64,000 bases of DNA from an uncultured Pseudomonadota bacterium (GCA_903919315.1 CAIXHP010000023.1:30031-94030), one strand, 5' to 3'; shown: positions 11,275 to 32,422, counted from the first letter of the stretch. A program made the numbers and translations. The notes: generated by a model from the sequence alone, not told the origin.

Positions 11275-11286
11275 AAGGGGTCTGCC

Positions 11287-11493
11287 ATGACAAACGCAAC
11301 GCGATATCCCGACGTCAGTGTTCAACTGACTGGCAACGACGGCAACGCCTTCAATCTTCTTGGCCTATGCCAACGCGCCGCGCGGAAAGCCGGTCTACCG
11401 GACGATCAGATCAAGACATTCATGGCCGAAGCCACCGGCGGCGACTACAATCACTTGCTGGCGACCTGCCAGCGTTGGTTTGACTGTCACTGA
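11287..11493 (+). CDS. small hypothetical protein
   Basis: 68-aa ORF with AAGGGG RBS. Confidence 0.4.
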   Translation: MTNATRYPDVSVQLTGNDGNAFNLLGLCQRAARKAGLPDDQIKTFMAEATGGDYNHLLATCQRWFDCH

Positions 11494-14134: not shown

Positions 14135-14367
14135 CGGATGCCATGCTGGATTCTTTGGCGGCTTCCGTGGTTCGTGGCTTGGGTCTGTTTTATTGGCCCA
14201 ACCGTTTGAAACGTTGGCGCTGTGTTGGCTTTAGAGGCGGCTGCCGCCTATTAGGTGGCTTCCCGCTTTTCATCGCTGTGCGTGGCGAAGTCCCGCGCGT
14301 TTGCCGCCAGCATACGCTGAGGCCCACACAGGACCCGCGATTAACGGCAACAGCGCGGCTGTTTGGC

Positions 14368-14850
14368 AACACTGTGAACTGTGAGACAGCGTCGAACGAG
14401 ACGAGCAATCTGTTTTGCTTTTCCACTCACAACCTTTTTGATCATTGCTGAATGTGGACACATGTTCGAACAGTGTCCAACAGTGTCGAACGAGCGTCGA
14501 TCATCTGTGGCGCGTTTCTTGCGCCGAACCTTTCTGGTTATTGCTGAATCTCACCACACATCCGGACAGTGTTGAACGACATGTACATGAGATTGAGCAA
14601 TCTTCGGATCGACTGTCGCTGCAAACCCGACCACACATTGCTCACTGTGGAAACATGTTCGTACAGTGTCACATGACATTCCGTGACGTTCAGCAATCTG
14701 TGGCGCTTATCGCGCTCTGTTCTTGTCCGATGATTGCTCGATCATGTAGATCATGTTCGACGGTGTCGCACAGTGTTCGACCATGACCAGCAATCTTCGA
14801 TGCGACGCTTGCGCCTAACCGATCCGGTTATTGCTGGTTTTGCGGATGAT
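14368..14850. repeat. array of about 5 spaced inverted repeats (AGCAATCT ... 30-40 bp ... TTATTGCTG) alternating with GTTCGAACAGTGT-type motifs
   Basis: Read directly in the non-coding region between the MTase gene and the 15033 gene. Confidence 0.7.
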
Positions 14851-15032
14851 GTGGGGATGATGTTCGAGACTATGTCGCGTCATGATCGGGCTTTTGCCGT
14901 TTGCCCGCCGCGCGTAACTCTCTCGACCATGCCAAAAAATATGCCAGAAAATGCACAAAGTGCGCAGAACTAAAATGCGTACGACTTTTTCCAATGATTT
15001 GAATCGTTTAACCGATTTTTGCGCCTTTTTCC

Positions 15033-15464
15033 TTATCCGTTTCGGATCATCCGCTTGTAGGGAAAGTCAAATTTCTCTTCCGGATGGGCAAGCCGATGCG
15101 TGATTTTGACGAGCGCAACGCGCCAGTCATGCTGTAGTTTACTCACTGACCAGCCTGTCAGCCTCCCGATGGCTTTCCACCGAATGCCGCATGCGCGGAG
15201 CCAAACGAGTTTGACATCATCGCTCTCAAGCCACATCAGCCAACGCAACGCTTCGTCCATTTCGGTGATGTGCCGTGGCGATGGCGGGCCGGGATGAATG
15301 TGCGCATCTTCCCAGCCGTAGGCTTCCATGGACTCGCGCACAATGGCTGGCCATGTTCCGAAGAAACCTTGCACGGCAACTTTGGGCAGTCGCTTGAGCG
15401 TATGCGCGGCTTGTTCAAGCCGGTCAGCGACGTCGACGACCGTGATGCGCTTGCTGCGGTTCAT
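15033..15464 (-). CDS. phage regulatory protein (putative HTH; hypothetical)
   Basis: ORF 15033..15509; ATG 15464 forms an ATGA overlap with the upstream gene's stop. Confidence 0.5.
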   Translation of the reverse strand: MNRSKRITVVDVADRLEQAAHTLKRLPKVAVQGFFGTWPAIVRESMEAYGWEDAHIHPGPPSPRHITEMDEALRWLMWLESDDVKLVWLRACGIRWKAIGRLTGWSVSKLQHDWRVALVKITHRLAHPEEKFDFPYKRMIRNG

Positions 15465-15778
15465 GGCCGCGCTCCATAGGCGCCGACCTTGAGCATCGCG
15501 CGCGCCCATGCGCAGTTGTCGATTTTGGCAAATTGCAAAAGCGCAATGCGCGCTTCCTCAAGCGTGGTGAAGCCGTAGCGCAAAAGCAATTCACCGAAGA
15601 CAGCTTCGGGCGGCATGCTCTTCCCGTGCATCCAGGACGCCCACACAGCGCCGCTTGAGCAGGTGCGCTCTTCGGCAGGGTCGTAGCGATCACGTACGCG
15701 CACGTCATAGACGCGCCCAGTGTGGGAACAGTTCCAATAAATTTTTGCGTCACGCGCTTTGATCAGGGTTGCTGTCAT
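15461..15778 (-). CDS. hypothetical phage protein
   Basis: 105 aa; AAGGAGG RBS 8 bp upstream of ATG 15778. Confidence 0.55.
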   Translation of the reverse strand: MTATLIKARDAKIYWNCSHTGRVYDVRVRDRYDPAEERTCSSGAVWASWMHGKSMPPEAVFGELLLRYGFTTLEEARIALLQFAKIDNCAWARAMLKVGAYGARP

Positions 15779-15921
15779 CGCTCATGCCTCCTTCGTTGGT
15801 GATGGGAAAAATGGAGCTTGGTTTTTGGGCAGGACACCTTGTGCCCGTGCGCAACTCCCTCGACCGATGGAGGAGAGAACGCTGAAAGCGTCTCTCTCTC
15901 CCGTAGGGAGAGTGGGTTTTT

Positions 15922-16124
15922 GTGAATCTGTGAATCTGGAATAAGCGCCTGAAATAAAAGGCGTATTTTCTAGATTTACAGATTCACGCGCCAGATTCCG
16001 GGGAATCTGGAAATCGCCTTTAAGTGACTGATAATAAATACGTATTCTAGATTCACAGATTCCCGTCGCGTCCAGATTCACGTAAATCTGGCCTAGATTC
16101 ACGCCGCCAAGGGGCAGATTCACG
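15922..16124. repeat. iteron-like array, about 12 copies of AGATTCAC/GTGAATCT with AT-rich patches (putative phage origin or regulatory site)
   Basis: Direct reading: motif copies at 15922, 15930, 15980, 15993, 16003, 16048, 16057, 16074, 16095, 16117 among others; each contains a GANTC site. Confidence 0.75.
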
Positions 16125-16155
16125 CGCGGGTTGGCGGGGTTTTGGAGAGCAAAAT

Positions 16156-18348
16156 TCATGGCTCAACCCCCTCGTGGTAGACCCAGATTTCGGGGTTCTC
16201 GACCGGCAAAATGGCACCGTCGCCAGGCTGCTTGAAATGGGTCGGAAGTAGGAGGGTCATGATGTCCGTGATCTCTCCTGTCTCAGGATCGACGGTCGGT
16301 TCGGCACGCGGAATTTCCATGCCTTCGATGCACATCATGCCGTACTTGCTCTTGGCTCCACGTCCTTCCTTGTTGAACTTGATGAAGCCCTTTGTTGTCA
16401 GAACGTCGATGCGGTCATGAATAGAATGGCGGCCACCGAGGCCTGCCTTGTTTTCGAAGGCTTGGCAGAATTGGCTCGGCGAGTAGAGATGGCCGCGCCG
16501 CGCTTCGTCGAACAGCAATTGCAGGATCACGTCATGACGGCGGCGGCGTTCGTTATCGAGTTTTTCGCCATGATCCTTGTTCACGAGTCTCTTCGAATGA
16601 CGCTCGACCTCGCGCCAGATGCCGTTGATTTTCTCGATGCCTTTTGTCGGGATCGATTGGCCATTGCGCAGTTCGAACATCAATTCGCGCATGGGCTGCT
16701 GCTCGTCAGGGCGGAACATAATGATGCCGGTGGTGTAAAAGCTGCGCAGGCTTGCGGCGCCACTGAGAGCCTGAAAGGGGTCGTCCTCCAGCATTCTCTT
16801 GGTGATTTTCTTGGTGTGGTGGGCGAGAATGATGCCAGCGTTGGGGTTGACCAGAAAACGCAGCTTTTCCACACGATCCTGAAGGAACGCGAGCATGGCG
16901 GTGTTGTCATTTTCATTGCCGCCTTCGCCCGGATCGAACACGTTGCGCAAAGGGTCGATGACGATAACGTCCAGAAGAGCGGGGTCGAAAAACCGCAAAA
17001 TGGCGTCGCGCACCATCTCGACGCCCTTGTCGTCGAGGAGCATGCGCACTTGCGACGTGATGACGAGGTTGTCCCGAACGAGAGGCAGGAACATCGGATC
17101 GAACTTCATCTGCTTCAGGCGTTCGCGCAGGTAGTAATAGCCAATCTCCGCCTGCAGATAGAAAATCCTGAGAGGCCTTGGCGGCTTCATACCGAGAAAA
17201 GCAAGTCCCGCCGCCATGTGTGCGAGAATGATCAAAAGCAAGTCCGTCTTGCCGACTTTCGGCGCGCCACCGAACACCGTAAGCCCGCCCGGCGTCAGGA
17301 TGCGCGGCGCGATCAAATCTTCCGGCATGGGGCTGTCGTCATCGAGAATAGCGCCGACGGTATAGGCAGGAACTGTGGCGACTGGCGCGGCGGCGATGGA
17401 TTCGGGGTGAGCGGTGTCGATGAACACGCGAACGTCCACGCCCTCGGCGCACGCGTCTGCCGCATCCCAGCCTTCGGATTTGTTCTCAGGAAGGGGAATG
17501 ATGCCAACGCTGGTCGCATTGGCGGCGAGAACGGCTTTGGCGGCCGCATGCGCGTAGGACGCGCCCGGCGCATCGTTGTCCGGCCAGATCAGCACCTGTT
17601 TTCCGGCCAGAGGCGACCAGTCTGTTTTGTCGGTTGGCGCATTGGATCCGCACACGGCGCTGGTGGCCGGTACGCCTGCGGCGATAAGCGCATCTGCCGC
17701 TTTCTCGCCCTCGACCAGAATGACCTTTTCGGCGCTTGCGATGCCTTTCTGGTTGTAAAGCGGGCGGCCTGATTTAGGTGCCTCGGCTTTTTTGGTAGCG
17801 GCGTTCCATATTCTGAAGCTCTTTTTCTTCTTGCCTTTTTCGTCCACGAACTCATGCCGATAAACAACGAGCTGAATGATGCCGTTGGCATCCGTGTAAT
17901 TGTACTGCGCGACGGGTGGCCCGATGTCGGGCTGGGATTTAACGGATTTGGCAGTTTTTGCGGTTGGCGTCGGCTCGCGCTCCGCCATGTTCAAAAATGA
18001 GGCGATGTTCCTGATCGCGGTCGTATAGTCTTCTCTCTGGACGATTTTCCAGAGGTCTATCAGATCGCCGAACTTCTGGCCGGTGGCAAAGTCTTCGCCC
18101 ACGCCCATCTTGTTCTTGCGCACGCTGATCTTGAGGCTTTCGCCCGGCGCGCCATAAACATCGCCGCACTGGAACTCTTCGCCGACATAAACGCCGTTCG
18201 GTAAAAGATGATCAAGGATCTGACGATAGCAGTCGGCCATGCGCTCTTTAAGTCGCGCGACATCGATTTTGGCGCGTGGATCTGGCCCGCCTTGCTTGCG
18301 GGCGTCATTAAAATCCATCTCAGACGCCATGCCAGCACCGCTTGGCAT
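16156..18348 (-). CDS. DNA primase/helicase (Toprim domain + RecA-like AAA_25 helicase domain)
   Basis: Toprim motifs VILVEGEKAADAL and WPDNDAPG; Walker A GGAPKVGKTDLLL; 730 aa. Confidence 0.8.
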   Translation of the reverse strand: MPSGAGMASEMDFNDARKQGGPDPRAKIDVARLKERMADCYRQILDHLLPNGVYVGEEFQCGDVYGAPGESLKISVRKNKMGVGEDFATGQKFGDLIDLWKIVQREDYTTAIRNIASFLNMAEREPTPTAKTAKSVKSQPDIGPPVAQYNYTDANGIIQLVVYRHEFVDEKGKKKKSFRIWNAATKKAEAPKSGRPLYNQKGIASAEKVILVEGEKAADALIAAGVPATSAVCGSNAPTDKTDWSPLAGKQVLIWPDNDAPGASYAHAAAKAVLAANATSVGIIPLPENKSEGWDAADACAEGVDVRVFIDTAHPESIAAAPVATVPAYTVGAILDDDSPMPEDLIAPRILTPGGLTVFGGAPKVGKTDLLLIILAHMAAGLAFLGMKPPRPLRIFYLQAEIGYYYLRERLKQMKFDPMFLPLVRDNLVITSQVRMLLDDKGVEMVRDAILRFFDPALLDVIVIDPLRNVFDPGEGGNENDNTAMLAFLQDRVEKLRFLVNPNAGIILAHHTKKITKRMLEDDPFQALSGAASLRSFYTTGIIMFRPDEQQPMRELMFELRNGQSIPTKGIEKINGIWREVERHSKRLVNKDHGEKLDNERRRRHDVILQLLFDEARRGHLYSPSQFCQAFENKAGLGGRHSIHDRIDVLTTKGFIKFNKEGRGAKSKYGMMCIEGMEIPRAEPTVDPETGEITDIMTLLLPTHFKQPGDGAILPVENPEIWVYHEGVEP

Positions 18349-19093
18349 ACGGGCAGAACTTGCATTCGTAATAGTCAGGGTTGGCTGCCATGCGCGGAAG
18401 AAGCTGTCCGGCTTCCGTTGCTCGAAGAATGTTCACAGCCTTGTCACTGACGCTTTGCGCAAGGGAGCAGTCGAACGGCACAAGCTCGTGGTAAAGCTCT
18501 TCAGTATCTTTGTTGAGCGCCGTGAAGAGCGCGGGATTCTGCGCAAGATCGGGCATGTAGCCCTGATAGAGGGCGAGTTGCGCGGCGTAGAGCGGCTTGG
18601 AAATCGCAAGCCCGCGCTTCACGACATCCTGCCAGCTTTTGTCCTTGAGAGCCTTGTGCTCCCACAGCATGGGATATGATAGAAACGATGGCCCGCCGAC
18701 GATTACGCCATCGATGTGGCCCTTGATGCGGCCTTTGGCGACCGAAAACCCGAATTGTTTTCCGTCCGCTTTTTCCGTGAGCAGCGCAAAGCCTGCCGCT
18801 CGTAGCCATTTGATCGACAACGCCTCAAACTGATGCCCCGCGTCAAAGATACGCAGCGTTTGCCCGTCAAAATCCGCACCTTCGTCTTTCGGCGCACCGG
18901 CATATTCGTATTGGATGCGGCGGGTGCAGGCGTTGCCGAGCATCGATGCGCCCAGATATTCGCGGCGCGGCTGTTTCTGGCGTTCGGCAATCAACGCCGC
19001 GTTGACCAGATCATTGATGCGTTCGCCAATGGGTACCGAGCGCGGATCAACAGGGGTACGTTCGGAACCATGGTTGAAATCGAGCATGCTCAA
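18320..19093 (-). CDS. Cas4-like PD-(D/E)XK exonuclease with Fe-S cysteines
   Basis: Catalytic motifs GHIDGVIV and EHK; Cys pattern C(N-terminal)...CKFCPYAKRC, i.e. C-x2-C-x5-C, as in Cas4/DUF83 nucleases. Confidence 0.65.
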   Translation of the reverse strand: MSMLDFNHGSERTPVDPRSVPIGERINDLVNAALIAERQKQPRREYLGASMLGNACTRRIQYEYAGAPKDEGADFDGQTLRIFDAGHQFEALSIKWLRAAGFALLTEKADGKQFGFSVAKGRIKGHIDGVIVGGPSFLSYPMLWEHKALKDKSWQDVVKRGLAISKPLYAAQLALYQGYMPDLAQNPALFTALNKDTEELYHELVPFDCSLAQSVSDKAVNILRATEAGQLLPRMAANPDYYECKFCPYAKRCWHGV

Positions 19094-19431
19094 AACGGCA
19101 CCTCAGGGCTGCCCTTGCGCATCTCGTTCTGAAAGGCCGTGACGATGACCTCGATCAGCGTCAGCACCTGTTCTTTGCTGTAGGCCGACAAGGGCTTGTC
19201 CATGCCAATTTCGGCCACGCATTCGCCAAGTGGCATCAGACACGCCCGTATGGCGGCGCGTTCAAAATCCGTCATGTCAACCATGCCGTTGTTCTCCTTG
19301 AATAGCTGTGCGTAAAGATTGAGGCAGCGCATGCTGCAGAAACGGCGCGCGGGTTTTTTCGGCTGCTTTATAAGAGCGGGGGAAAAGCCGAAGCCGTGCT
19401 GCTCGCGATAACAAATGGCACACCATCTCAC
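19090..19431 (-). CDS. hypothetical phage protein (N-terminal Cys-rich)
   Basis: 113-aa ORF with 4-bp overlaps on both sides. Confidence 0.45.
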   Translation of the reverse strand: MRWCAICYREQHGFGFSPALIKQPKKPARRFCSMRCLNLYAQLFKENNGMVDMTDFERAAIRACLMPLGECVAEIGMDKPLSAYSKEQVLTLIEVIVTAFQNEMRKGSPEVPF

Positions 19432-20417
19432 GTTGCCTCGCTTTCAAAGGTCATGATGGCTTGCCCGATGATCGCCGCGATTTGCGGGACGATGGCATTG
19501 CCGAGGGCGCGCAGTCTGTCCACCCGATGGGGTACCCTTGAAGCCACTCGACCCACGTCGGGTTCAACGATCCAAGGATCGCGTTGGAACCATGGGTCTG
19601 AAGCCCACTCCTTCTGTTCGCCGTGGGCGTCGGCCATTGATGCACCGCCCGGCCAAGGAGACCGTTCACTGGCACGTTCTTGCAGGCCTGCGCCGTTCCG
19701 TCCTTCCAGTCGCGGCTGGTCGGCGTCGGCCATTGGCGCAGGGATTGATTGACGGCCCGCCCTAACTCGTTTCCGCTGGGCCCGTTGCTTTTGCCGTCCG
19801 GACTGAAGCCGTGCGGTGTTGGCCACAGCTTTTGCTTTTGCGAAATACCCGCACGATAAGCCATCGCCGCCCATTCCTCGCGGTTCCGACATTTTTCCTT
19901 CAGCATCATAAGTGATCCGTCGTTCGTGAATCCGCGAACGTCTGGCGTGGGCCAAAATCCAAAGTCGGTCGCGTCTATGCGGGGCGCCAACGGCGCAAGC
20001 TGGAATAACAAACGGCCAGACGGCGAAGCCTTCAGCTTCCAGCGATGTGGCAACCTCGTCGAAACCGAGGCTAATATGCCCAGCAACGTTTTCGGCAACG
20101 ACCCATCGCGGCCTGACGCCTCGTATAATGCGCAGCATTTCCGGCCAGAGATGTCTTTCATCTTCTGCGCCAGCCCTACGTCCTGCCATGCTGAAGGGCT
20201 GGCAGGGGTATCCCCCGCAAACAAGGTCAACTGTTCCCCGGTATTGTCCGCCATCAAGCGCACGCACATCGTCGTGGATGGGGACGTCGGGCCAGTGCTT
20301 TCGCAGCACGGCGCGGCAGTACGTTTCGATTTCGCAGAACGCGACGGTTTGCATGCCCGCCGCTTCGAGGCCAAGGCTGAATCCGCCGATGCCGGAGAAG
20401 AGGTCGAGCACATTCAC
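19428..20417 (-). CDS. DNA (cytosine-5)-methyltransferase
   Basis: Motif I LFSGIGGFS, motif IV GGYPCQPFS, motif VI ENV. Confidence 0.85.
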   Translation of the reverse strand: MNVLDLFSGIGGFSLGLEAAGMQTVAFCEIETYCRAVLRKHWPDVPIHDDVRALDGGQYRGTVDLVCGGYPCQPFSMAGRRAGAEDERHLWPEMLRIIRGVRPRWVVAENVAGHISLGFDEVATSLEAEGFAVWPFVIPACAVGAPHRRDRLWILAHARRSRIHERRITYDAEGKMSEPRGMGGDGLSCGYFAKAKAVANTARLQSGRQKQRAQRKRVRAGRQSIPAPMADADQPRLEGRNGAGLQERASERSPWPGGASMADAHGEQKEWASDPWFQRDPWIVEPDVGRVASRVPHRVDRLRALGNAIVPQIAAIIGQAIMTFESEAT

Positions 20418-21178
20418 GCCGCCTCCGCATCGAAGTCGACGAAACAGCCGCAGCCGCCGATCTCGAACATGTCGATCTGGCCTTTGGCTTCTATTTTTTC
20501 GCGCAGCGCCTTAAGGGTAAGATCTTTCAGAATGGAGACGTTTTTGCCGAGAAACGCGCGTAGTTCCTGTTCTTTTTGTTCATGGTACAAATAGCGGCAC
20601 GGCAACGTGCGCAGCAGGTTGGCAAAATGGCCTTGCCCCGCTTTCACACAAAACCCGCCGCAGTTGTTGTGCGCGAAGCCCATCTCATAGAGACGAGGCG
20701 GTTTGATGCCTGCGTTTTTAAGCCATGCCAGCATCTGGCGTTTGTCCACATAAGGCGGATCGCACATGGGAGCTTCGTAAATCCATGGCAGCTTGCGCGG
20801 CGCGAGCCGGATGATCCGATGCTCTTCTGTCCAGTCGATGCCGACATAGCAAACGGTGTCGGCAGGATCGCAATTCGCCTTAAGCCACCTGTCGGCCATT
20901 TTTCGTTTCAGCGTTTCGCTGCACGGGTCGATTTGGCTGTTGCCGAGAAAGCGGCGGTCGAAGAACACTTCCCAAGGCGTGCGTCCCTCGGCGATTTTGA
21001 CCAGCGGTGCGCCGATGTTCGCCGCTGCCTCATCGATGAAGCGGTACAAATCCTCGTCTTCCATGCGCGTGTCCGTGAACAGCAGCACGGTGTTCGCCGT
21101 TCCATGCCGCTCGACGACACGTTTCGCGGCCGCCCATGAGCCGATGCCGCCGGAAAAGAAAACGACGTGCTTTGTCAT
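20414..21178 (-). CDS. PAPS reductase-like / PP-loop superfamily protein
   Basis: N-terminal VVFFSGGIGS; C-terminal Cys cluster NCGGFC; ATG 21178 overlaps the helicase stop (TGATG). Confidence 0.5.
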   Translation of the reverse strand: MTKHVVFFSGGIGSWAAAKRVVERHGTANTVLLFTDTRMEDEDLYRFIDEAAANIGAPLVKIAEGRTPWEVFFDRRFLGNSQIDPCSETLKRKMADRWLKANCDPADTVCYVGIDWTEEHRIIRLAPRKLPWIYEAPMCDPPYVDKRQMLAWLKNAGIKPPRLYEMGFAHNNCGGFCVKAGQGHFANLLRTLPCRYLYHEQKEQELRAFLGKNVSILKDLTLKALREKIEAKGQIDMFEIGGCGCFVDFDAEAA

Positions 21179-23901
21179 CACGCCGCCTCCGTTTTTCCAA
21201 CGGCGTTCTCGACCAGTTGCCTGATCCGCCCTTTGTTGAACCGGAAATTGAGCAGGCATGACGCGCGGTACTTGGTCATGCTGAAATCGAGACGCGCCGC
21301 TTCGTCGAGAAGGGCGAGTTGCTTTTCACTGGCGGGTTCATTGAGCCACCGGCGCGTTTTATGGGCGCTTTCGCTCGTCTCGTGTTCGTTGAGAAAATCG
21401 TCAGCCACGGCCATCATCACCGTGCGCTCGCCCGTCCCAAGAAGTTGGACGGTGCGTTCATGGCCGCCAACGGCGTGCCAGTACCCATTGAGCCAGAAGA
21501 TCGCGGCCCATGCCGTGAATCCAGAGGCCATCAGGGCGGCGTCATCACCGAACAGGTCAATCCACCGGAAGCTGCTGCGTTTGAGGAGGTCGATTTCCGT
21601 AAGTGAAAAATCTTCAAGCGGAAGTTGATCGACTCCAAGTGCTGCTCCAGCCTCGGCGTTGCCGAACACGAACTCATAACCACACAACGCGCATTCATGG
21701 GCGGAAAGCGGGACGATGGCATCGCATTCAGGACAGGTTTTTGTTGGCGCTTCGCCTTCGTGAACTTTCCCGTCGAGATTGACGTCCTGTTCGAGGCTTC
21801 CGTGCATGAGCGTCGATGTGCCGAAGTCGAGCACAATGCAGTCTGTCTTGATCACGCCCGGATGTTCTTTGGGATCGATCGTGCGCAACCCGCGACCGAT
21901 CATCTGGATCATTGTCGAACGGTACGAGCTGGGGCGCAGCAAGACGACGCATGAGGTCGGCGGGTAATCCCATCCTTCCGTCAATACGGCGACATTGACA
22001 ATGACGCGCGCGCTGCCCTGCTGGAAGCGGGCGAGCGTCAAGCGACGATCACTGTGAGCCATATCGCCATGCACGAGGACGGCTTCAACACCGGAGCGCT
22101 TGAATGTTTCCGTCACGTTTGTTGCGTGTTCGACGGTCGAGCAGAAAACGACCGTTTTGCGATCACCCGCTTTTTCCTGCCAGTGGCTGACGACAGCGCT
22201 GGTTACGACCGGGCGATCCATGATCTCCGCGACTTCGGCCATATCGAAGTCCGCAGCGGTCTTACGCACCTGGCTCAGTTCGTCCTGGACGCCGACATCC
22301 ACGACAAACGTGCGCGGTGGCACGAGATGGCCGGATTGAACAAGCTCGGCAAGGCGGATTTGATCGCCGACATTGTCGAACACAGGGCGCAAAGCTTTCT
22401 TGTCGCCGCGATTGGGCGTGGCTGTCAGCCCGAAGAGCATAACCTTCTGGTTTTTCTCTTTGGCGTTATCGATGATGCGGCGATAGCTGTCTGCAGCTGC
22501 GTGATGAGCTTCGTCGATTACAAGAAGATCGAGCGGCGGCATCATGGTGAGATTGTCGGATCGCGCCAGTGTGGGCGCCATAGCGAAGGTCGCGCGTCCA
22601 CGCCATGATTTGCTGTTCGCGTCATAGATGGACGTGCTGATGGCGGGATTGACCCGCATAAACTTCGTGACGTTCTGCGCGGTGAGTTCGTCGCGGTGGG
22701 CCAAAACGCAAGTCTTTTCGGCAGCGCGCTCTCGGATAAGTTCGCCCGCAACGGCGGACAGCATGATCGTCTTGCCGGAGTTATGCGTAACCGTGAAATC
22801 GCCCATCAAATAGCGGCAATCGCCATCGACCGAAAACCCGATATAGTCGCCACGACCGACGGCATGAACCGTAAATCCGGTTCGAAGCACATTTTTGCGC
22901 TGCCGTCGCGGTGTGGCCTGCTTGCGCACGACGCGCGTGGGAATGAGATCGGTGTCGCCGCTGATATGAACCCGCCAATAAAGGACGCCGTTAACTTCCT
23001 TACGGCTGGGCGTGGCCAGAAAGCCGAGGCTGCGAGCGACAAAAACGACATCTTCAGTGAGCTTTGGGGACTTGCTGCTGAACTCAAAACCCGTTTGCTT
23101 GGACAGGTGACCGTCGGTATCGAGTAACCCGGCGAGCACCGCAAGGCGTGTGTCGCGGCTGCCCAGTCGGTAGCCGTTGGGCAGAAACTTCTCTTCTGCG
23201 CCCTTGCCGTGCAGAGACAATTCGCGCAAGGCGTCGATCAGGACGTTTGCCTGTCCACGCCCGGCGCCAACCAAGTGATAGGTGTTAGCGGCATTATCGA
23301 CCAGTTGTTCACACCGGATAGACAGGCCCATAGCATCGGCGTGGGCATAGAGCGTTTCCACGATTTCCGCATCGGGGGTCGTCACAGCGATGCCGTGCTT
23401 GATAGAGCCGTCGCCGATCAGGACGCCGAAAAAATAGGGATCCAACGCAGGCTTTTGCCTGTAAGGAAAATCGACAGAAAGCCTCAACAGCTTGTGCAGG
23501 TGCCGAAATGTCGACGATTCTGCGAGATAATCGCGCAGCGGAATGTCGATGATCTCGCCTGCGCGGCTTCGTCCGAACTTATCCTCACCGTCGTTTGTTC
23601 GCACCAAGGTCAGGATATGGCCATGATTGACCCGGAATGGCATCCCTTTGATCGGGCGGATGTCGAACATTTGATCTTGGCCTTGATGGATTTCCAGCAC
23701 ACGTCTGCGGGTGCCGTCTGGCCCCATGAGCAGGTCATCGATCCGTATGTTCTCCACCGACTTTTGAGAACCGTCATGCATAAGGATCAGCGTTCCGGGC
23801 GCGTGGCAGCCTGTGGGAGCCACGCCGAGCGTGTTACCGCGCGCTTTAAGCGCAGCGACACAATTATCGACAAAGATTTTCTGACGTGGCCTTAACAGCA
23901 T
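21178..23901 (-). CDS. SF2 DEAH-box phage helicase precursor carrying an intein in the Walker A motif
   Basis: Exteins join to LGVAPTG|SGKT (Walker A); motif II VIDEAHH, III LTATPN, VI QMIGRGLR; C-terminal zinc ribbon CPECD...CALCG. Confidence 0.85.
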   Translation of the reverse strand: MLLRPRQKIFVDNCVAALKARGNTLGVAPTGCHAPGTLILMHDGSQKSVENIRIDDLLMGPDGTRRRVLEIHQGQDQMFDIRPIKGMPFRVNHGHILTLVRTNDGEDKFGRSRAGEIIDIPLRDYLAESSTFRHLHKLLRLSVDFPYRQKPALDPYFFGVLIGDGSIKHGIAVTTPDAEIVETLYAHADAMGLSIRCEQLVDNAANTYHLVGAGRGQANVLIDALRELSLHGKGAEEKFLPNGYRLGSRDTRLAVLAGLLDTDGHLSKQTGFEFSSKSPKLTEDVVFVARSLGFLATPSRKEVNGVLYWRVHISGDTDLIPTRVVRKQATPRRQRKNVLRTGFTVHAVGRGDYIGFSVDGDCRYLMGDFTVTHNSGKTIMLSAVAGELIRERAAEKTCVLAHRDELTAQNVTKFMRVNPAISTSIYDANSKSWRGRATFAMAPTLARSDNLTMMPPLDLLVIDEAHHAAADSYRRIIDNAKEKNQKVMLFGLTATPNRGDKKALRPVFDNVGDQIRLAELVQSGHLVPPRTFVVDVGVQDELSQVRKTAADFDMAEVAEIMDRPVVTSAVVSHWQEKAGDRKTVVFCSTVEHATNVTETFKRSGVEAVLVHGDMAHSDRRLTLARFQQGSARVIVNVAVLTEGWDYPPTSCVVLLRPSSYRSTMIQMIGRGLRTIDPKEHPGVIKTDCIVLDFGTSTLMHGSLEQDVNLDGKVHEGEAPTKTCPECDAIVPLSAHECALCGYEFVFGNAEAGAALGVDQLPLEDFSLTEIDLLKRSSFRWIDLFGDDAALMASGFTAWAAIFWLNGYWHAVGGHERTVQLLGTGERTVMMAVADDFLNEHETSESAHKTRRWLNEPASEKQLALLDEAARLDFSMTKYRASCLLNFRFNKGRIRQLVENAVGKTEAA
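22780..23808 (-). mobile_element. intein (343 aa) with LAGLIDADG homing endonuclease
   Basis: Begins at Cys (codon 23808..23806; CHAPGTLILMHDG); ends ...FTVTHN (Asn codon 22782..22780) followed by Ser +1; LAGLIDADG motifs YFFGVLIGDGSI and LAVLAGLLDTDGHL. Confidence 0.8.
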
Positions 23902-23969
23902 GGCTCACCAACAACAAACGAACGGATAAGGAAAACGCGGCGAGCCTCATGCCCGCCGCGCTGCGAGGG

Positions 23970-24611
23970 TCAGCGCGCCCAAGAGGGCATGGCTCCGCCT
24001 TGCGTTCCTGTTTGTTGCTGTTGAGGGGCGGCGTTCGGTTGCTGCGCCGGTTGTTGAGCTGGCATTGGCTGCGGAGCATAACCGGCTTGGGCGCCGAACA
24101 TCACGCCAGCGTATTCTTGATTTTTGCGCGTCAGCACGAGGGCCAGACGGTTCTTGTCCGGATAGTTGTCTTTACCCTTTTCGATGCCAATCTTGGCGAC
24201 AAACTGCAGTCCATTGAATGAACCGAAGTCTTGCGTGATGCGTTTCTGGCGCGCGGCGGGACTGTCGTCGTCGGGATCAAGGCCGAAGGCGCTGTCCAGC
24301 ATAGCGCGCAACGACGCCTTGGTGATGCCCCACGCTTTCGACTGCCCGCGCTCGTCGACTTTGCCGCCGGATACCGTCATGTTCTGCCAGAACTTGCGCT
24401 TCGCAAACGGGCCTTCGAGCACCGTGAATTCGAAATTCAGGTATTCGACGTCGCTGGTGTTGCTGCGCGTCAACCAGCCGCCCTGGCCTGTGCTGCCGGG
24501 CCGTAGGGTCGCAACCACCTTTGCAATCGTATTCGCCGGAATAAGCTCTCCGGACTGCTGTTGTCCGGCGTCGTTGAAATCCATCCCTTGAGTCTGGTAC
24601 ATGTGGGTCAC
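23970..24611 (-). CDS. DUF669-like phage protein (Sak4 partner, putative ssDNA-binding)
   Basis: Follows the Sak4-like ATPase gene with a 4-bp overlap; Gln/Pro-rich C-terminus. Confidence 0.5.
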   Translation of the reverse strand: MTHMYQTQGMDFNDAGQQQSGELIPANTIAKVVATLRPGSTGQGGWLTRSNTSDVEYLNFEFTVLEGPFAKRKFWQNMTVSGGKVDERGQSKAWGITKASLRAMLDSAFGLDPDDDSPAARQKRITQDFGSFNGLQFVAKIGIEKGKDNYPDKNRLALVLTRKNQEYAGVMFGAQAGYAPQPMPAQQPAQQPNAAPQQQQTGTQGGAMPSWAR

Positions 24612-25498
24612 TCCTGTATTGGTTTAGCGGCTGGTGCGGGGGGTTCGGCATCGGTCGGCTGTGGCCTGCAAAACTCCAGCCGTTCCGATGCCGTCTTGGT
24701 TAAGGGTTGTTTGATCTTTTCCATGAGCCGCCCCAAGTGCGGCTCCTCGATCATGGACAGCCGCCCGCTGCGGTCGCCCGCGGGGTAGCCCCATGGATTG
24801 AGCGCTTGGCAGACGAAGGCGCGATAGGGCGTTCCATCGTCGGCTTTCAATTCAGCCATCGTAATCACTTGATCGACGATGCCCGGCAATTCGAGGCCGG
24901 TTTTGCTGCCTTCGATCTGTGGCGTGTAAATACGGCGGTTGAAATCGTCGGTCTTTTCGTCAAGAAGCCCGACGAACCAGACGTTTTTGCTGCGCGTGTG
25001 CTGCAAATGCGTAAGCCAACCCACCATCTCGCGGCCCAGAAGACCGTAAGCGCCTCGCGTATCGGGCTTGCCTGTCTTTTCGCTGATGGCTTCCGGCTGG
25101 CCTGTGCACCACTGGAAGCACAAGCGAGAGGCGACGGTGATGCTGTCGACGAAAATCGTTTCGTATTTGTCGAGCGCGGCTGCATCGCCGAATTCGCTGC
25201 AGACAAAATCGTAATGCGCCTGACTGTAGGGCTGATTATCGCGCAACGCGGGATTAGGGCCGCCGATGTAGGCAGCGAAGTCGCGGCACTCCTGCCACGT
25301 GCGCGGGCGGATCGTATCGCCCGGCCAACCTTCGACAGCAAGATCGCCCGCCTCAAGATCAATAAACAACGTGCTCTTTGCGTCCAGCGTCAATAGCTCC
25401 GTGGTTTTGCCGATTTTATAAGGCCCGTAAAGGCAGCCTTTGATGCCGCGCTTTTCAGCCATGCGCTGCTCAGCCGTGATGAGTTTGAATCCGGTCAT
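24608..25498 (-). CDS. Sak4-like RecA-family ATPase (AAA_24)
   Basis: Walker A GPYKIGKTT near the N-terminus when started at ATG 25498 (MTGFKLI...); the longer track ORF carries a low-complexity N-terminal extension. Confidence 0.65.
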   Translation of the reverse strand: MTGFKLITAEQRMAEKRGIKGCLYGPYKIGKTTELLTLDAKSTLFIDLEAGDLAVEGWPGDTIRPRTWQECRDFAAYIGGPNPALRDNQPYSQAHYDFVCSEFGDAAALDKYETIFVDSITVASRLCFQWCTGQPEAISEKTGKPDTRGAYGLLGREMVGWLTHLQHTRSKNVWFVGLLDEKTDDFNRRIYTPQIEGSKTGLELPGIVDQVITMAELKADDGTPYRAFVCQALNPWGYPAGDRSGRLSMIEEPHLGRLMEKIKQPLTKTASERLEFCRPQPTDAEPPAPAAKPIQE

Positions 25499-25499
25499 T

Positions 25500-25973
25500 T
25501 TACTCCTGCGGTTTGGGTTTGAGGGTGTAGGTCGCCTTGCCCGGCACGACGGTGCGCGCGGGAGAGAAAAGTTTCTGGATGTCGGGAGGAGCGGCGGCGT
25601 ACTTGCGTTCGTCGACCTTGAACTCGGCTTTGACATAGTGCTTGGCCGTTTCGGTCGGAAGAGAATCCAGCGCCGTAACGAGCTTGGCCTGATCCCATTT
25701 AACGGTTTTGCCAACTTCGGCGGCGACGTCAAAACCCATGTCGTCAAGATGAACGACACCTGTGTCTTTTCCCGCCTCAAGCCGCCGTTGTTTTGCCGCA
25801 TCGCCATATTTGCGGTCGAGGGCGCAAATGAGCTTGTCCTTGCGCACCTTCAGGAGCATTGCGTCCTTGTCGAGCAGGTCGATCAAGTCCGCCAGTTCCG
25901 GCGCAGCCAGATTGGCAATGGTCGCGATGTCCATGGCATCAAGCGCGGCGGGATGGAAATTGCGCAGGATCAT
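25500..25973 (-). CDS. hypothetical phage protein
   Basis: 157-aa ORF overlapping both neighbours by 4 bp. Confidence 0.5.
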   Translation of the reverse strand: MILRNFHPAALDAMDIATIANLAAPELADLIDLLDKDAMLLKVRKDKLICALDRKYGDAAKQRRLEAGKDTGVVHLDDMGFDVAAEVGKTVKWDQAKLVTALDSLPTETAKHYVKAEFKVDERKYAAAPPDIQKLFSPARTVVPGKATYTLKPKPQE

Positions 25974-26458
25974 GCCATGCCTCCATGCTGCTGCCCGTAG
26001 AATGCAATCAACGCCGCTTCGGCCAATCCGTCATCCTTGTGACGCGGCCACAGATGCGCATGGCGCGGCATCAACTGGCTGGCGCGGTAGCGGGCGTCGT
26101 CTTTGTTGCTGGAGACTTTGAGTTTGCTCTTCCACGTCACCGGCGTGACAAGCGTCATGGGTAGAAAGTGCGCGGCGACGATGCCTTTGATCGCGCCATA
26201 CGTTTCGCCAAAGGCAAACATGCTGGCGACGCCCTGCTTGGGCATGGACGCGACGCGCTCGATGAAAACATGAACGTGCGAGGCATTTTTCGTCCCGTTG
26301 TCGATCAGCCGCGCCAAGGCATTCAGATCGAGGATCCTGCGGTTGCCCTTGCCTTTGCTGATTTTGAGCGTGGGCAACGCCTCAACGGACATCTCGTCGC
26401 CGTTACGAAAAGCCAAAGCGCCGGACAGACCCGGATCGATGCCGACGAAGAGCGTCAT
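25970..26458 (-). CDS. RuvC-family Holliday junction resolvase
   Basis: N-terminal LFVGIDPGLSGALA, the typical RuvC start; 162 aa. Confidence 0.75.
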   Translation of the reverse strand: MTLFVGIDPGLSGALAFRNGDEMSVEALPTLKISKGKGNRRILDLNALARLIDNGTKNASHVHVFIERVASMPKQGVASMFAFGETYGAIKGIVAAHFLPMTLVTPVTWKSKLKVSSNKDDARYRASQLMPRHAHLWPRHKDDGLAEAALIAFYGQQHGGMA

Positions 26459-26667
26459 ACGGGGATCTCCACGCTGTAGAGATCCTTGTGCTTCACGCGC
26501 CCCTTGGTTATGGCGACGATTTTGTCGGCTATGACGGGGCGCGGACGGCGCAAACCTCTGGCATATCTGGAGACATTCAGGGCTGCGCTGGTGCTGTCCA
26601 TGCCAAGCATTCGCGCGAATTCAGCGTGGGACAGGTCTTTCTCTTTGAGATAATCGGCAAGTTTCAT
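26455..26667 (-). CDS. Cro-like HTH transcriptional regulator
   Basis: HTH LSHAEFARMLGMDSTSAALNVSRYARG; first gene of the leftward early operon; divergent from the CI-like gene. Confidence 0.65.
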   Translation of the reverse strand: MKLADYLKEKDLSHAEFARMLGMDSTSAALNVSRYARGLRRPRPVIADKIVAITKGRVKHKDLYSVEIPV

Positions 26668-26801
26668 AGGCCAAAGACCTATCCCATTTGGCACACTAAC
26701 ACAAGATTAATGTGGCCTATTCGGATGTGCGAATGAAACTATTTGCGTTAACCATCCAGAGCGGATAGGATGCCTCATCCGAATTGGATGGAGTATTAGG
26801 C
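26668..26801. promoter_or_regulatory. lysogeny-switch intergenic region with GGATG/CATCC inverted-repeat operator candidates
   Basis: GGATGCCTCATCC and CATCCGAATTGGATG inverted repeats lie between the divergent cro-like and cI-like genes. Confidence 0.55.
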
Positions 26802-27191
26802 ATGAACAGATTGAAAATCGTACGAGAACTGGCGGGTTACACGCAAGAGCAAGTCGCCACGGCGCATGAAGTCACGGCGCAAACGATTCAGCGTTTCGAG
26901 AAGGGAACGCGCAACGTAAGCCTCGCCTGGCTGGAAAAAATGGCGGAATTTTACAAGGTCAGGGTTTCCACTTTAGTCGATGACGTTGTCGAAGCTGAAG
27001 TCGACGAGGCTCTCATGCGGGAAATCATGGCCTACACGTTCAAGCGATGCGAGGGCGAAAACGTCGATATCAATAAGCTCGCCAAGGTCGTGACCAAAAC
27101 CTACAAAAAATGCCGCAAGATGAAAGAAGCCCCTAAAATGGCCGAGATCAGGGAAAAAGTGGACGACATGCTGACATGCGCCATCGATTAA
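26802..27191 (+). CDS. CI-like XRE-family repressor (no peptidase domain)
   Basis: HTH LAGYTQEQVATAHEVTAQTIQRFEKG. Confidence 0.7.
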   Translation: MNRLKIVRELAGYTQEQVATAHEVTAQTIQRFEKGTRNVSLAWLEKMAEFYKVRVSTLVDDVVEAEVDEALMREIMAYTFKRCEGENVDINKLAKVVTKTYKKCRKMKEAPKMAEIREKVDDMLTCAID

Positions 27192-27195
27192 GCGC

Positions 27196-27576
27196 TCAAT
27201 TTATGCCGTTAAATTCCTGCAAGAACTGCACCGCTTCATCAAACTGATCGCGCGGCAACTCACACAAATCCTCGATTTGGTAGGCCGTGGTAAAAGCCAA
27301 GCGCAGGGTAGCTGGACTGCAAAGAAGGCCGTAGGCGCGGCGAATAATGATGCCTTCCAAACTTTTAATCTGATGGTCACAAATTGGGTTGTACACCCCT
27401 GCCGGTAAGGGCGTCTGTCCAGAAGAAAAAAGATCCTCCTCTTCGGCCATTTCCTCAAAGACGAGGGGCACTATTTCTTTGTAATCGCTCATAAAAATCA
27501 TTCGCAGGAGAAAATCGGTTACCAAAAACCGGCAAAACATGTTGTTAATAATGCCCGAAAAAAACGGCAAAAGCAA
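27196..27576 (-). CDS. hypothetical cargo protein (low-GC)
   Basis: ORF in the AT-richer segment; probable shorter start MSDYKEI at 27492; no clear SD. Confidence 0.4.
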   Translation of the reverse strand: MLLPFFSGIINNMFCRFLVTDFLLRMIFMSDYKEIVPLVFEEMAEEEDLFSSGQTPLPAGVYNPICDHQIKSLEGIIIRRAYGLLCSPATLRLAFTTAYQIEDLCELPRDQFDEAVQFLQEFNGIN

Positions 27577-27659
27577 TTAAAATCTTGACTTTTAGTATCA
27601 TATAGTCAGACTTTACGTATTAACGATATGTAAAGCATAATTGGAATAGAAAGCATACT

Positions 27660-28316
27660 ATGGCACTCACCCCAGACCAGCTCCGCGCCGCCCGTGCGCT
27701 TTTGAATATCTCGCAAGACAGCCTTGCTAAAGGATCCGGCGTTGCTGTCACGGCCATACGCCAATACGAGTTGGGTATTACGACGAACCTGCAGCAGAAG
27801 ACGGAAAACGCCTTGCTCTCTTTCTTCGCGGATAAGATCGAGTTCATCGGCACGCGAGGCGTTGCGCAACGGGAAGCAGATCAGCTGATCCTGGACGGCG
27901 AGAACGTGATTGCGCAGATGTTCGAGGACATACATGCGCATTTGTGCGGGCAGGAAGGGGCGGAAGCTCTATTCTTGTGCGGCGATACGCCTTGCCTGTT
28001 CTCTCCGGAGCTTATCGGATACAGCGTAGCCCTGCAGGAAGCCGGTTTTACCTATCGTTCCGTTTGCCAAAAAAAGAACAAGGCTGCGTTTACGCGCATC
28101 ATTCCGGCGAACTACGCACCGCTCCCCTTTCAAGCCGTCTATGGTTCAACGGTCGCGCAGATGATCAATCATAACCGCATTCTTCTGGTGCGCTCGCCCA
28201 TGCTGGCGAAAGGGCTGCGACAAACGTTCGAGCTGCTTTGGGCCTTCATCCCTGCATCTGAAGCAGAAAAATCCGATGAGGACGCCACAGAAGAAGGTGA
28301 AGCTCTCAGGGCATAA
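27660..28316 (+). CDS. XRE-type HTH protein with uncharacterised C-terminal domain
   Basis: N-terminal LRAARALLNISQDSLAKGSGVAVTAIRQYELG; AT-rich promoter-like region upstream. Confidence 0.6.
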   Translation: MALTPDQLRAARALLNISQDSLAKGSGVAVTAIRQYELGITTNLQQKTENALLSFFADKIEFIGTRGVAQREADQLILDGENVIAQMFEDIHAHLCGQEGAEALFLCGDTPCLFSPELIGYSVALQEAGFTYRSVCQKKNKAAFTRIIPANYAPLPFQAVYGSTVAQMINHNRILLVRSPMLAKGLRQTFELLWAFIPASEAEKSDEDATEEGEALRA

Positions 28317-28418
28317 GCAAACCGATCCTTTTTGGATGTTTGACAAACCATGCCTATTTGGATAGGTTCTTGGGGTCAGGCGGCCAATTGCCGCTCCATT
28401 TACCCCAAGGAGAATTGC

Positions 28419-28661
28419 ATGATCCCCGTTGTTTCCCAGCTCTATATGGATATGGCCCACCGTTGCGTTCGGCAGACACTCGCGCTTGTGCGCGAAGGGC
28501 GCAGCGAAGAAGCCCTCGAAGTCGCCAATCTTGCCGTCGATTCCTACGACAAAGCCCTGTCAGCCAATAAAGGCGCTGGCCACGATATCTTCGCCGTCCT
28601 TGCGATGCTCGTTCCTCATACATCCGAACGTGCTTCCGCCACCAAACAATCAGCCGCCTAA
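28419..28661 (+). CDS. small hypothetical protein
   Basis: ORF 28350..28661; AAGGAGA RBS before ATG 28419. Confidence 0.4.
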   Translation: MIPVVSQLYMDMAHRCVRQTLALVREGRSEEALEVANLAVDSYDKALSANKGAGHDIFAVLAMLVPHTSERASATKQSAA

Positions 28662-28947
28662 CCAGCATGATCGTGTTTGCCGGAATTTGGCGTCGCGTCA
28701 CCCGCGCCCTGCGTCAGCAGTGGCGCTGGTGGCGCACGCTCTGGACGGGGAAATGATGCGTGTCGCAACTGCCCATGGAGTCGTCGTCGCAAAAAAGCTC
28801 TCTGCATATCGTGGCTGATCTTCTGGCCCTGGCTATATTACGCAGAAAAGCAAAGGAAAATGGCCAGAACGACGGTTCTCAACTGGACTTCGCGAACAAA
28901 GGAAGCATGTGTGACGGCAACGAAAAACCGTCAAAAGAGAGCATGCT

Positions 28948-29412
28948 ATGACGCCGATTATGCGGCAGATCAAAGAACTTCAGGACAAAAGCTTCGCCGA
29001 ACTTAAACAGCTTTGGCGAGATTATTATCAGACTGAACCCCCGCCGTACCGGCGCGGATTTATGGCCCGCGCCTTGGCCTATCGGATACAAGAATTGACC
29101 TACGGCGGATTATCCACGAAAGCGGAAAGTCGACTGGACGATCTGATTGCCGAAGCCAAAGGAACAAAAACCAAGAGGCGTTTGGCTCCGGCGAAGATCC
29201 CTGTCGCTGGCACACGGCTTGTGCGCGAATGGCGCGGTGAGAGGCATGAAGTGATCGTGTTGCCCGATGGATTCGAATATGCGGGCCGAAAGTGGGGATC
29301 GCTGACGGCCATAGCACGGCAAATCACCGGCACCCATTGGAACGGGCCGGTGTTTTTCGGACTGCGCAGAGAGCAGCCAAAACCCGTTGTCGTGAACGCG
29401 GAGGCCGCATGA
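28948..29412 (+). CDS. DUF2924-family protein (serine recombinase partner)
   Basis: C-terminal ...ITGTHWNGPVFFGL; ATGA overlap with the recombinase start. Confidence 0.65.
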   Translation: MTPIMRQIKELQDKSFAELKQLWRDYYQTEPPPYRRGFMARALAYRIQELTYGGLSTKAESRLDDLIAEAKGTKTKRRLAPAKIPVAGTRLVREWRGERHEVIVLPDGFEYAGRKWGSLTAIARQITGTHWNGPVFFGLRREQPKPVVVNAEAA

Positions 29413-32330: not shown

Positions 32331-32422
32331 TGGCGGAGGGGATGAGATTCGAACTCACGATACAGTTTGACCCGTATAACCGCTTTCCAGGCGATCGCCT
32401 TCAACCACTCGGCCACCCCTCC
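32331..32422 (-). tRNA. tRNA-Ser (anticodon GGA)
   Basis: Folded by hand: acceptor GGAGGGG/CCCCTCC, anticodon loop CUGGAAA, long variable arm, T-arm GTTCGAATC, encoded CCA. Confidence 0.85.

Follow-up and report, generated by a model that had tools for sequence, protein, structure and literature searches.

The 64,000-nucleotide stretch of DNA analysed here (hereafter the window; GCA_903919315.1, CAIXHP010000023.1:30031-94030, from an uncultured Pseudomonadota bacterium) carries, within a prophage, an open reading frame (ORF) for a superfamily 2 (SF2) helicase whose Walker A motif is split by an in-frame insert. Profile searches, an end-to-end alignment with PI-SceI, the yeast VMA1 intein, and a predicted structure together identify this insert, with a probability of roughly 0.9, as a canonical class-1 intein of the PI-SceI (VMA1) type, equipped with a two-motif LAGLIDADG endonuclease and hosted by a RadD-like SF2 helicase. 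The match of the insert to intein models is far beyond chance. The gene is divided as follows.

21178..23901, minus strand: precursor ORF, comprising N-extein, intein and C-extein (907 aa, 100.2 kDa)
23809..23901, minus strand: N-extein, aa 1-31, ending with the first half of the Walker A motif (..GVAPTG) and kept in intein-free and intein-bearing homologues
22780..23808, minus strand: intein, 343 aa, Cys1...His342-Asn343, a Hint domain interrupted by a LAGLIDADG endonuclease (PF05203, PF05204, PF14528; PI-SceI alignment; Foldseek)
21178..22779, minus strand: C-extein, aa 375-907 and the stop codon, opening with the +1 Ser of SGKT (ResIII, Helicase_C, UPF0547)

Reading frame and junctions

The frame is open over 907 codons and closes with a stop codon. 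Its product begins MLLRPRQKIFVDNCVAALKARGNTLGVAPTG31 and continues directly with C32HAPGTLILMHDG, the N-terminal junction being G31↓C32 (arrows mark junctions), and the C-terminal junction reads MGDFTVTHN374↓S375GKTIMLSAVAG; the 343-residue insert therefore sits between G31 and S375 of the Walker A motif. On the DNA, the N-side junction is CCC ACA GGC↓TGC CAC at 23809/23808 and the C-side junction is CAT AAC↓TCC GGC AAG ACG at 22780/22779. A first-pass annotation, made by a model from the sequence alone, had proposed a 907-aa ORF at 21178-23901 with a 343-aa insert at 22780..23808, which the DNA junctions bear out to the base, and had read it as LGVAPTG-[C...FTVTHN]-SGKTIML, in agreement with the translation (Cys first, His-Asn last, Ser at +1). 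The sizes that it gave, ~62 kDa for the spliced product and ~38 kDa for the intein, compare with calculated masses of 62.1 and 38.1 kDa.

As the source was matched to a contig of a metagenome-assembled genome (MAG), CAJAUK010000048.1 of GCA_903945155.1, the split gene could conceivably be an assembly chimera or an artefact of that genome, but the chance of this is close to nil: the identical 907-aa protein (P0001) is present on nine public contigs, which derive from the MAG and from no fewer than three separate metagenome assemblies, dozens of homologues share the architecture, and the junctions are exact and in frame. Because the insert runs on in frame from one extein into the other, a free-standing endonuclease gene or a group I intron is ruled out. 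ORFs antisense to the intein (e.g. 23209..23895, plus strand, 228 aa) were rejected as genes on the strong coding evidence of the minus strand, no search of them against a family library having been made, and are put down to the frequency of long antisense frames in GC-rich coding DNA. When the window is translated in six frames and all segments of 80 aa or longer are searched with the intein by phmmer, only the self-match is returned, hence no second intein.

Domain architecture of the intein

Pfam analysis of the insert alone reports Hom_end_hint (PF05203, E 6.6e-16, matching from residue 1), Hom_end (PF05204, E 1.7e-8) and LAGLIDADG_3 (PF14528, E 2.3e-7), all three exceeding the curated cut-offs; the search against intein and LAGLIDADG profiles that the first-pass annotation had proposed thus comes out positive. 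A comparison with all PDB sequences ranks PI-SceI first (E 2e-16) and fungal Prp8 inteins next (E ~1e-11), and the alignment with PI-SceI runs from Cys1 to the terminal His-Asn. In this alignment, intein D133 (GVLIGD133G) faces PI-SceI D218 and D232 (GLLDTD232G) faces D326, these being the two catalytic aspartates of PI-SceI. The class-1 splice residues are all present, namely Cys1, Asn61 and His64 of block B, blocks F and G, His342, Asn343 and the +1 Ser, and the splicing blocks as well as both LAGLIDADG motifs are conserved among 58 full-length inteins of the family. The motifs map as listed below, residues called invariant being so by comparison with three phage inteins.

23611..23631, minus strand: splicing block B, VNHGHIL (intein N61 and H64, an NxxH variant; N92 and H95 of the precursor invariant)
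22909..23463, minus strand: homing-endonuclease domain, about intein aa 116-300 (Hom_end, LAGLIDADG_3, model, and the ratio pN/pS given below)
23401..23436, minus strand: LAGLIDADG motif 1, YFFGVLIGDGSI, precursor aa 156-167 (G163, D164 and G165 of the precursor invariant)
23104..23145, minus strand: LAGLIDADG motif 2, LAVLAGLLDTDGHL, precursor aa 253-266 (D261, D263 and G264 of the precursor invariant)
22780..22827, minus strand: splicing blocks F and G, DGDCRYLMGDFTVTHN, with the penultimate His and terminal Asn present (family alignment)

The two LAGLIDADG motifs claimed in the first-pass annotation are thereby located, each ending in an acidic residue, and PF14528 and PF05204 cover the domain that contains them. 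An AlphaFold2 model of the whole precursor, built from a 59-sequence alignment, has a mean predicted local distance difference test score (pLDDT) of 80, most of the endonuclease domain scoring ~85-97. Foldseek analysis of this model against the PDB reports as top match the PI-SceI mini-precursor (1ef0_A, E 8.9e-23, target-normalised TM-score 0.65) and as second match RadD (7r7j, E 2.7e-22); a Hint fold is thus indicated both by Hom_end_hint and, at the level of the predicted structure, by the match to the mini-precursor. The first half of the modelled endonuclease comprises H155-164, E172-175, H178-190, E193-199, E206-212 and H220-227 (H, helix; E, strand), and the second half H249-263, E264-267, E271-276, H279-291, E295-303 and E306-314. 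The model displays the pseudo-dimeric alpha-beta-beta-alpha-beta-beta-alpha core of LAGLIDADG endonucleases, and its fold matches those of PI-SceI and the TliVMA intein. Pfam, the PI-SceI alignment and the predicted fold therefore concur on the claimed intein with a LAGLIDADG homing-endonuclease domain.

The host helicase

Splicing in silico restores the helicase profiles. ResIII scores 66.5 bits in the precursor, where its match begins only at profile position 34, whereas in the spliced protein the match covers profile positions 4-164 unbroken (86.5 bits, E 2.4e-24); the DEAD score likewise rises from 27.7 to 47.7 bits, and Helicase_C matches the spliced protein with an E of 1.5e-16. The spliced helicase displays SF2 motifs I (Walker A), II (DExH), III and VI, which read APTGSGKT, VIDEAHH (aa 461-467), TATP (aa 493-496) and QMIGRGLR (aa 666-673). 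The C-extein also holds a zinc ribbon and, beyond it, a conserved C-terminal domain.

21667..21741, minus strand: Cys4 zinc ribbon, aa 721-745 (UPF0547, E 1.2e-10; C723, C726, C737 and C740 nearly invariant)

The SF2 helicase assigned as host in the first-pass annotation is recovered through ResIII and Helicase_C. Among proteins of solved structure, its spliced form is closest by sequence to E. coli RadD (E 1.9e-33), and it is closest to RadD by fold as well. E. coli RadD (PDB 6jde, 7r7j) likewise consists of an SF2 core followed by a zinc ribbon, but its C-terminal domain differs, and the window gene is phage-borne. The NCBIfam RadD model (NF053632) scores 147.4 bits, far below its equivalog cut-off of 720; the protein is thus not a RadD orthologue, and we call it RadD-like, not RadD. 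The gene had also been described as a phage replication helicase. It does lie in a phage replication and recombination module, but a role in replication is only putative, given that a distinct primase/helicase (16156..18348) belongs to this module and that RadD, the best characterised relative, is a repair and recombination accessory protein.

Same-site inteins and empty alleles among homologues

A homologue search of 5.8 billion proteins returns 3,887 relatives, the best 120 of which were examined. An intein occurs at exactly this site in 67 of these 120 homologue clusters, reading [A/S]-x-T-[G/A]↓C...[T/S]HN↓[S/C]GK. The +1 residue is Ser in 65 of the 67 and Cys in the other two; the Cys at the intein start, present in 67/67, holds by construction of the junction search. 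Another 48 clusters are free of the insert, and the remaining five of the 120 are truncated or divergent. Among the 48 insert-free clusters, 42 have APTGAGKT, and the other six have APTAAGKT, or Ser (two), Cys (two) or Met at the +1 position. Alignment of the spliced extein with intein-free homologues (557-567 aa) gives a clean junction with ResIII contiguous, the gap spanning exactly aa 32-374. In place of a native domain, which would have spoken against an intein, the homologues thus carry at this position APTGAGKT in nearly all cases and APTGSGKT in a few. The claim of a restored APTGSGKT P-loop is accordingly accurate for the window protein spliced in silico, but the intein-free state of the family is APTGAGKT; the +1 Ser therefore travels with the intein. 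This tie between +1 Ser and intein presence is as expected if splicing is selected. At the DNA level, the spliced junction made in silico reads GGCGTGGCTCCCACAGGC↓TCCGGCAAGACGATCATGCTG, and the Ala-type empty site of an intein-free relative (L005) reads GGCGTTGCGCCGACCGGC↓GCGGGCAAAACCATTATGCTC, with many wobble-position differences from the window target.

The inserts fall into size classes. Full-length inserts of 336-352 aa occur in 58 clusters, four others (P0070, P0071, P0073, P0075) have 251-265 aa, with the first endonuclease half deleted, and five (P0066, P0067, P0068, P0072, P0074) are mini-inteins of 147-162 aa without endonuclease. Full-length, half-deleted, mini and empty forms at one site are stages of the homing cycle, snapshots of endonuclease decay. 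Separately, one homologue (P0079, a Pannonibacter phragmitetus 'helicase' of 574 aa) begins within the C-terminal part of the intein (MRKQAPPRKQKKNVLRCGFTVHP...THN↓SGKT), as would be the case if the gene call were truncated or if an intein-bearing allele had been disrupted.

Probable lateral acquisition, and selection

The distribution and the sequences of the alleles indicate that the intein probably entered the window helicase lineage by lateral homing. The window extein is 80-88% identical to those of the 11 other sampled clusters of its subclade, and 11/11 of these are without intein. The nearest intein-bearing extein is 68% identical, no nearer than many intein-free exteins, and the nearest sampled intein is 73% identical. 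Across 56 intein-bearing proteins, intein and extein identities show a moderate correlation (Spearman 0.59), and the pair P0002 and P0019 is discordant, with exteins 95% and inteins 64% identical. The window protein P0001 and the intein-free P0046, whose extein is 88% identical, lie in syntenic phage contexts and share the metagenome assemblies ERZ1426633 and ERZ1426810.

Sixty-one subclade-diagnostic positions distinguish the window subclade from the rest of the family. The window extein keeps the subclade state at 54 of them and has the outgroup state at four, three of which (positions 41, 51 and 55 of the spliced protein) are found 10-24 codons 3' of the insertion site (Fisher p = 0.001); the diagnostic positions of the N-extein keep the subclade state in 5/5 cases. 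Overall, the window gene shares 77% DNA identity with L005:6001-7692, an intein-free allele, as compared with 52% in the 60 bases directly past the insertion. The 3' identity drop and the outgroup residues look like what is expected of a short co-conversion tract from an outside donor, and the following segment is a candidate for it.

22708..22779, minus strand: candidate co-conversion tract, first 24 C-extein codons, from the +1 Ser to Cys398 (diagnostic positions, DNA identity drop)

Selection was gauged from the ratio of nonsynonymous to synonymous differences per site (pN/pS) by the Nei-Gojobori method, the corrected synonymous distance dS not being computable for two Hint segments. With pS at ~0.7, near saturation, the values are rough. 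The extein has a ratio of ~0.04 when compared with the intein-free L005 allele; L086, the nearest intein-bearing allele, served as reference for the intein (~0.08) and for the endonuclease domain within it (~0.11). Rough as they are, these ratios point to purifying selection on extein and intein, and are incompatible with a dead helicase or a decaying insert. A degenerate, non-splicing Hint insertion in a helicase that is the decaying pseudogene of a defective prophage is for this reason very improbable, even though the left end of the prophage runs off the contig and block F contains an unusual Cys. The 907-codon frame is intact, none of the splice residues Cys1, block B Asn and His, His342, Asn343 and +1 Ser is missing, and an extein ratio of ~0.04 is incompatible with a dead gene that has a permanently split P-loop. 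In addition, +1 is Ser or Cys in 67/67 intein-bearing clusters, against Ala in nearly all empty alleles, which is a signature of selection for splicing.

The near saturation of pS is one of several points that weigh against an active intein gained by homing. The intein is ~85 residues short by comparison with PI-SceI between blocks A/B and the endonuclease domain, where PI-SceI has its additional DNA-recognition region, so that its DNA recognition may differ. We infer both splicing and DNA cleavage from conserved residues and selection. The donor allele is unsampled; as the nearest intein is only 73% identical, the invasion is not necessarily recent. The segment put forward as a co-conversion tract falls in a loop that is variable across the family, and its support amounts to five diagnostic positions. 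Lastly, block F has Cys331 where most relatives have His, which may affect the splicing rate.

It is also conceivable that the intein splices but that its endonuclease is dead, the element being inherited vertically with the prophage and immobile. The distance to the nearest sampled intein, without sign of a very recent transfer, would fit this, as would the decay seen in relatives at the same site in the form of mini-inteins and half-deleted inserts. The base composition points the same way: GC content is 56.8% in the intein and 58.1% in the extein, and third-position GC content (GC3) 65.9% and 68.3%, respectively; this match indicates that the intein did not come in very recently from a source of different composition, and would agree with residence long enough to ameliorate. 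We nevertheless regard a dead endonuclease as unlikely, since both catalytic Asp and both LAGLIDADG helices are intact and conserved, the pN/pS of the domain is low, the domain is modelled with high confidence, and the absence of the intein from all 11 other subclade clusters favours gain over long vertical descent.

Proposed splicing and homing, and the block F cysteine

In the scheme that we propose for this intein, the 100-kDa precursor would be unable to bind ATP as its P-loop is split. Cys1 would undergo an N-S acyl shift, giving a thioester that the hydroxyl of the +1 Ser would attack, and Asn343 would then cyclise with the help of His342, releasing the 38-kDa intein. An O-N shift would restore a native peptide bond and yield the 62-kDa helicase with its APTGSGKT P-loop. 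The freed intein is probably a site-specific endonuclease, which would cut intein-less helicase alleles when related phages or prophages share a cell, and repair from the intein-bearing copy would transfer the intein and, with it, a short part of the adjoining extein, including the obligatory +1 Ser codon.

Block F of the window intein is DGDCRYL (22807..22827, minus strand), with a Cys (codon TGC) at intein residue 331. In relatives this position is His in 50 of 63, Asn in seven, Gln in four and Gly in one, and Cys is found only in the window intein; the occurrence of the identical protein on nine contigs argues that it is no read error. Besides Cys331, the intein contains cysteines only at positions 1 and 166. 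This raises the idea of a conditional switch, in which splicing and helicase activity would be held back, for example in oxidative stress, by a Cys1-Cys331 disulfide, coupling phage DNA metabolism to host physiology. Cys331 is two base changes away from a His codon, and a precedent exists in the P-loop intein DnaBi1 of M. smegmatis, in which a disulfide that joins the catalytic Cys to a non-conserved one acts as a reversible block (PMC6195587); the clustering of inteins in P-loops has, furthermore, been argued to reflect selective retention (PMC4760082). A switch nonetheless appears improbable for the window intein. Conditional splicing, like the post-translational switch suggested in the first-pass annotation, is speculation, for which the unique Cys is the sole hint; position 331 tolerates several residues, so that the Cys may be neutral; and the empty sites, mini-inteins and discordant trees seen across the family fit a selfish element. 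Slightly more doubtful still is a joint reading, in which Cys331 and Cys1 would make splicing redox-sensitive, the recombination helicase being released only in a reducing (healthy) host, and in which the intein-bearing phage and its 88% identical intein-free relative in the same lake metagenomes would reflect ongoing homing between temperate phages.

Comparison with known inteins

An exhaustive HMMER scan of the intein against 1.84 billion cluster representatives reports 16,050 relatives at E <= 1e-3 and 3,503 at E <= 1e-30. All nine host proteins that were read are P-loop ATPases, and in each an intein occupies G↓[S/T/C]GK or GK↓[T/S], within or directly after Walker A; these inteins are 38-56% identical to that of the window. 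These hosts are two AAA-type proteins, a ClpB-like protein, a VirB4/TrbE, a DnaB-like protein, an AAA_25 protein, a primase-like protein and two other SF2 helicases; one AAA-type host, scanned against Pfam only, carries three intein copies, and P0134 has a second copy outside Walker A. The window intein is thus an ordinary member of a very large, well-described class. The P-loop has been termed a 'classic' intein site and phages are reported as intein carriers (Novikova et al. 2016, PMC4760082; Kelley et al. 2016, PMC5050341), a 'classic' K↓T P-loop site being described for phage terminases (PMC5050341). As in the P-loop inteins of DnaB site b, MCM site a, RFC and mycobacteriophage TerL1-a/b, the intein here occupies the Walker A motif of a DNA-transaction ATPase, its +1 nucleophile is a P-loop residue and its carrier is a phage, but a RadD-like phage SF2 helicase is not among the host families tabulated in the two surveys (PMC4760082, PMC5050341).

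Like PI-SceI (PDB 1vde, 1ef0, 1lws), the window intein combines a Hint domain with a two-motif LAGLIDADG endonuclease, an NxxH block B and a P-loop ATPase host. It differs in being only ~20% identical and 111 residues shorter, in its +1 residue (Ser, as compared with Cys in PI-SceI), and in its host, a bacterial phage helicase instead of the A subunit of the eukaryotic V-ATPase.

Closer parallels come from phages. In ORF42 of the Listonella (Vibrio) phage phiHSIC (NC_006953), a PI-SceI-type intein with endonuclease sits at the same site of a homologous helicase (..DAATG↓CHAYG...HHN↓CGKS), in a module that, as in the window, has a Sak4-like protein, a single-stranded DNA-binding protein and a resolvase upstream of the helicase. 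The two precursors are, however, only ~32% identical, +1 is Cys in phiHSIC, and its host is gammaproteobacterial. The phiHSIC helicase intein is presumably included in InBase; a literature search on it found nothing. Klebsiella phage JD001 (L003:3001-5694) and Escherichia phage HelliStehle_Bas95 (L002:2983-5844), whose record carries a 'similar to intein' feature, have related inteins in the Walker A motif of homologous SF2 helicases. Their precursors are 30-35% identical to that of the window and blocks A, B, F and G are alike, but their inteins sit three residues further on, at Lys↓Thr (TGGGK↓C...THN↓T, as compared with APTG↓C...THN↓S in the window), which is the 'classic' K↓T site of the phage terminases. 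One intein lineage therefore uses two neighbouring P-loop sites.

Intein-bearing helicases of the family are labelled in public records as 'terminase large subunit', 'DarB-like antirestriction' (the RefSeq label of phiHSIC ORF42), 'homing endonuclease', 'exonuclease' or 'ATP-dependent RNA helicase DbpA' (NC_020204.1, NC_054652.1, NC_006953.1, MG592395.1, PQ850607.1, P0003), and one homologue is already named 'Hint domain-containing homing endonuclease' at NCBI. A likely cause of the mislabelling is that the intein matches PHROG profiles of intein-containing terminases and primases (e.g. phrog_19299, phrog_15, phrog_510). The family is of value for annotation on this account, as the intein confuses pipelines and leads to mislabelled homologues. 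That inteins target P-loops of DNA-handling ATPases and travel with phages is a known rule, which gains here one well-documented case and a large family so far unannotated. The family also provides a clean evolutionary example, with an intein-bearing allele nested among intein-free sisters, a candidate co-conversion tract, and full-length, endonuclease-deleted and mini forms all at one site. The window may, moreover, supply a PI-SceI-type splicing intein with Ser at +1 that comes from a mesophilic phage. The finding opens no new question, and a role as a regulatory switch would matter only if shown experimentally.

Prophage and host context

PHROG and Pfam scans delimit the prophage block and the genes around the helicase as follows.

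1166..30791, no strand assigned: prophage block, left end cut by the contig end
1166..1840: phage protein phrog_6367, first of the block (PHROG)
11487..12692 and 12689..14134, minus strand: fusions of a ParB-like N-terminal domain with a DNA methyltransferase, adjacent paralogues (phrog_498, phrog_620)
16156..18348, minus strand: primase/helicase
18320..19093, minus strand: Cas4-like exonuclease
19428..20417, minus strand: C5 DNA methylase
20414..21259, minus strand: PAPS-reductase-like protein (phrog_424, E 1e-55; no Pfam match at E <= 0.001)
23970..24611, minus strand: phrog_2300 protein
24608..25807, minus strand: Sak4-like AAA_24 protein
25970..26458, minus strand: RuvC-like resolvase
29292..30791, plus strand: large serine integrase
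32331..32422, minus strand: tRNA-Ser(GGA)
32670..33548, minus strand: DapF, host gene

Genes for the major capsid protein, protease, portal and large and small terminase subunits lie near the left end of the prophage, a helix-turn-helix repressor-like gene lies on the serine-integrase side of the module, and the right junction with the host is marked by the serine integrase near tRNA-Ser(GGA) and DapF. On the left the prophage runs off the contig, whose length exceeds that of the window by only 433 bases. Contiguous structural, replication and integration genes thus adjoin the host chromosome, in which a type II topoisomerase subunit (48620..51064) matches alphaproteobacterial genomes only, at no more than 70% identity. 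The alphaproteobacterial prophage named in the first-pass annotation is hence upheld, the phage module adjoining host genes whose best matches are all alphaproteobacterial.

Two features of the neighbouring genes may be added. The PAPS-reductase-like gene lies directly downstream of the helicase and is absent from the contigs of intein-free relatives; its longest ORF overlaps the helicase end by 82 bases, and the public call (254 aa) starts at the helicase stop codon. The prophage also has three methylase genes, the C5 methylase included.

Nested frames in the C5 methylase gene

Within the C5 methylase gene (19428..20417, minus strand; frame A), a second long ORF of 320 aa is open on the same strand in another frame (frame B, 19451..20413), and such nested frames are also present in L005:7689-8672 and L087:1296-2333. 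Frame A encodes motifs I-VIII and X (PF00145, phrog_363). Frame B encodes WPTP repeats and a motif IX-like segment, LNPTWVEWLQGYPIGWT, and matches phrog_1008; its homologues form more than 4,700 clusters, with no Pfam domain. In low-GC Paenibacillus phages, too, it is open within the methylase gene, under the annotation 'g55 internal gene'. Public gene calls take frame B, and the methylase is consequently missed. The pN/pS of frame A is 0.23-0.29 at both ends and 0.94 in the middle, and that of frame B is 0.55 in the middle and at least 1 at the ends, a pattern that shows constraint on frame A at its two ends and on frame B in the middle. In the known case of M.EcoHK31I, the gene of the alpha chain also contains, in a different frame, the coding sequence of the beta chain with its motif IX (PMC2836561); the two-frame architecture of the window methylase matches that of this two-chain enzyme.

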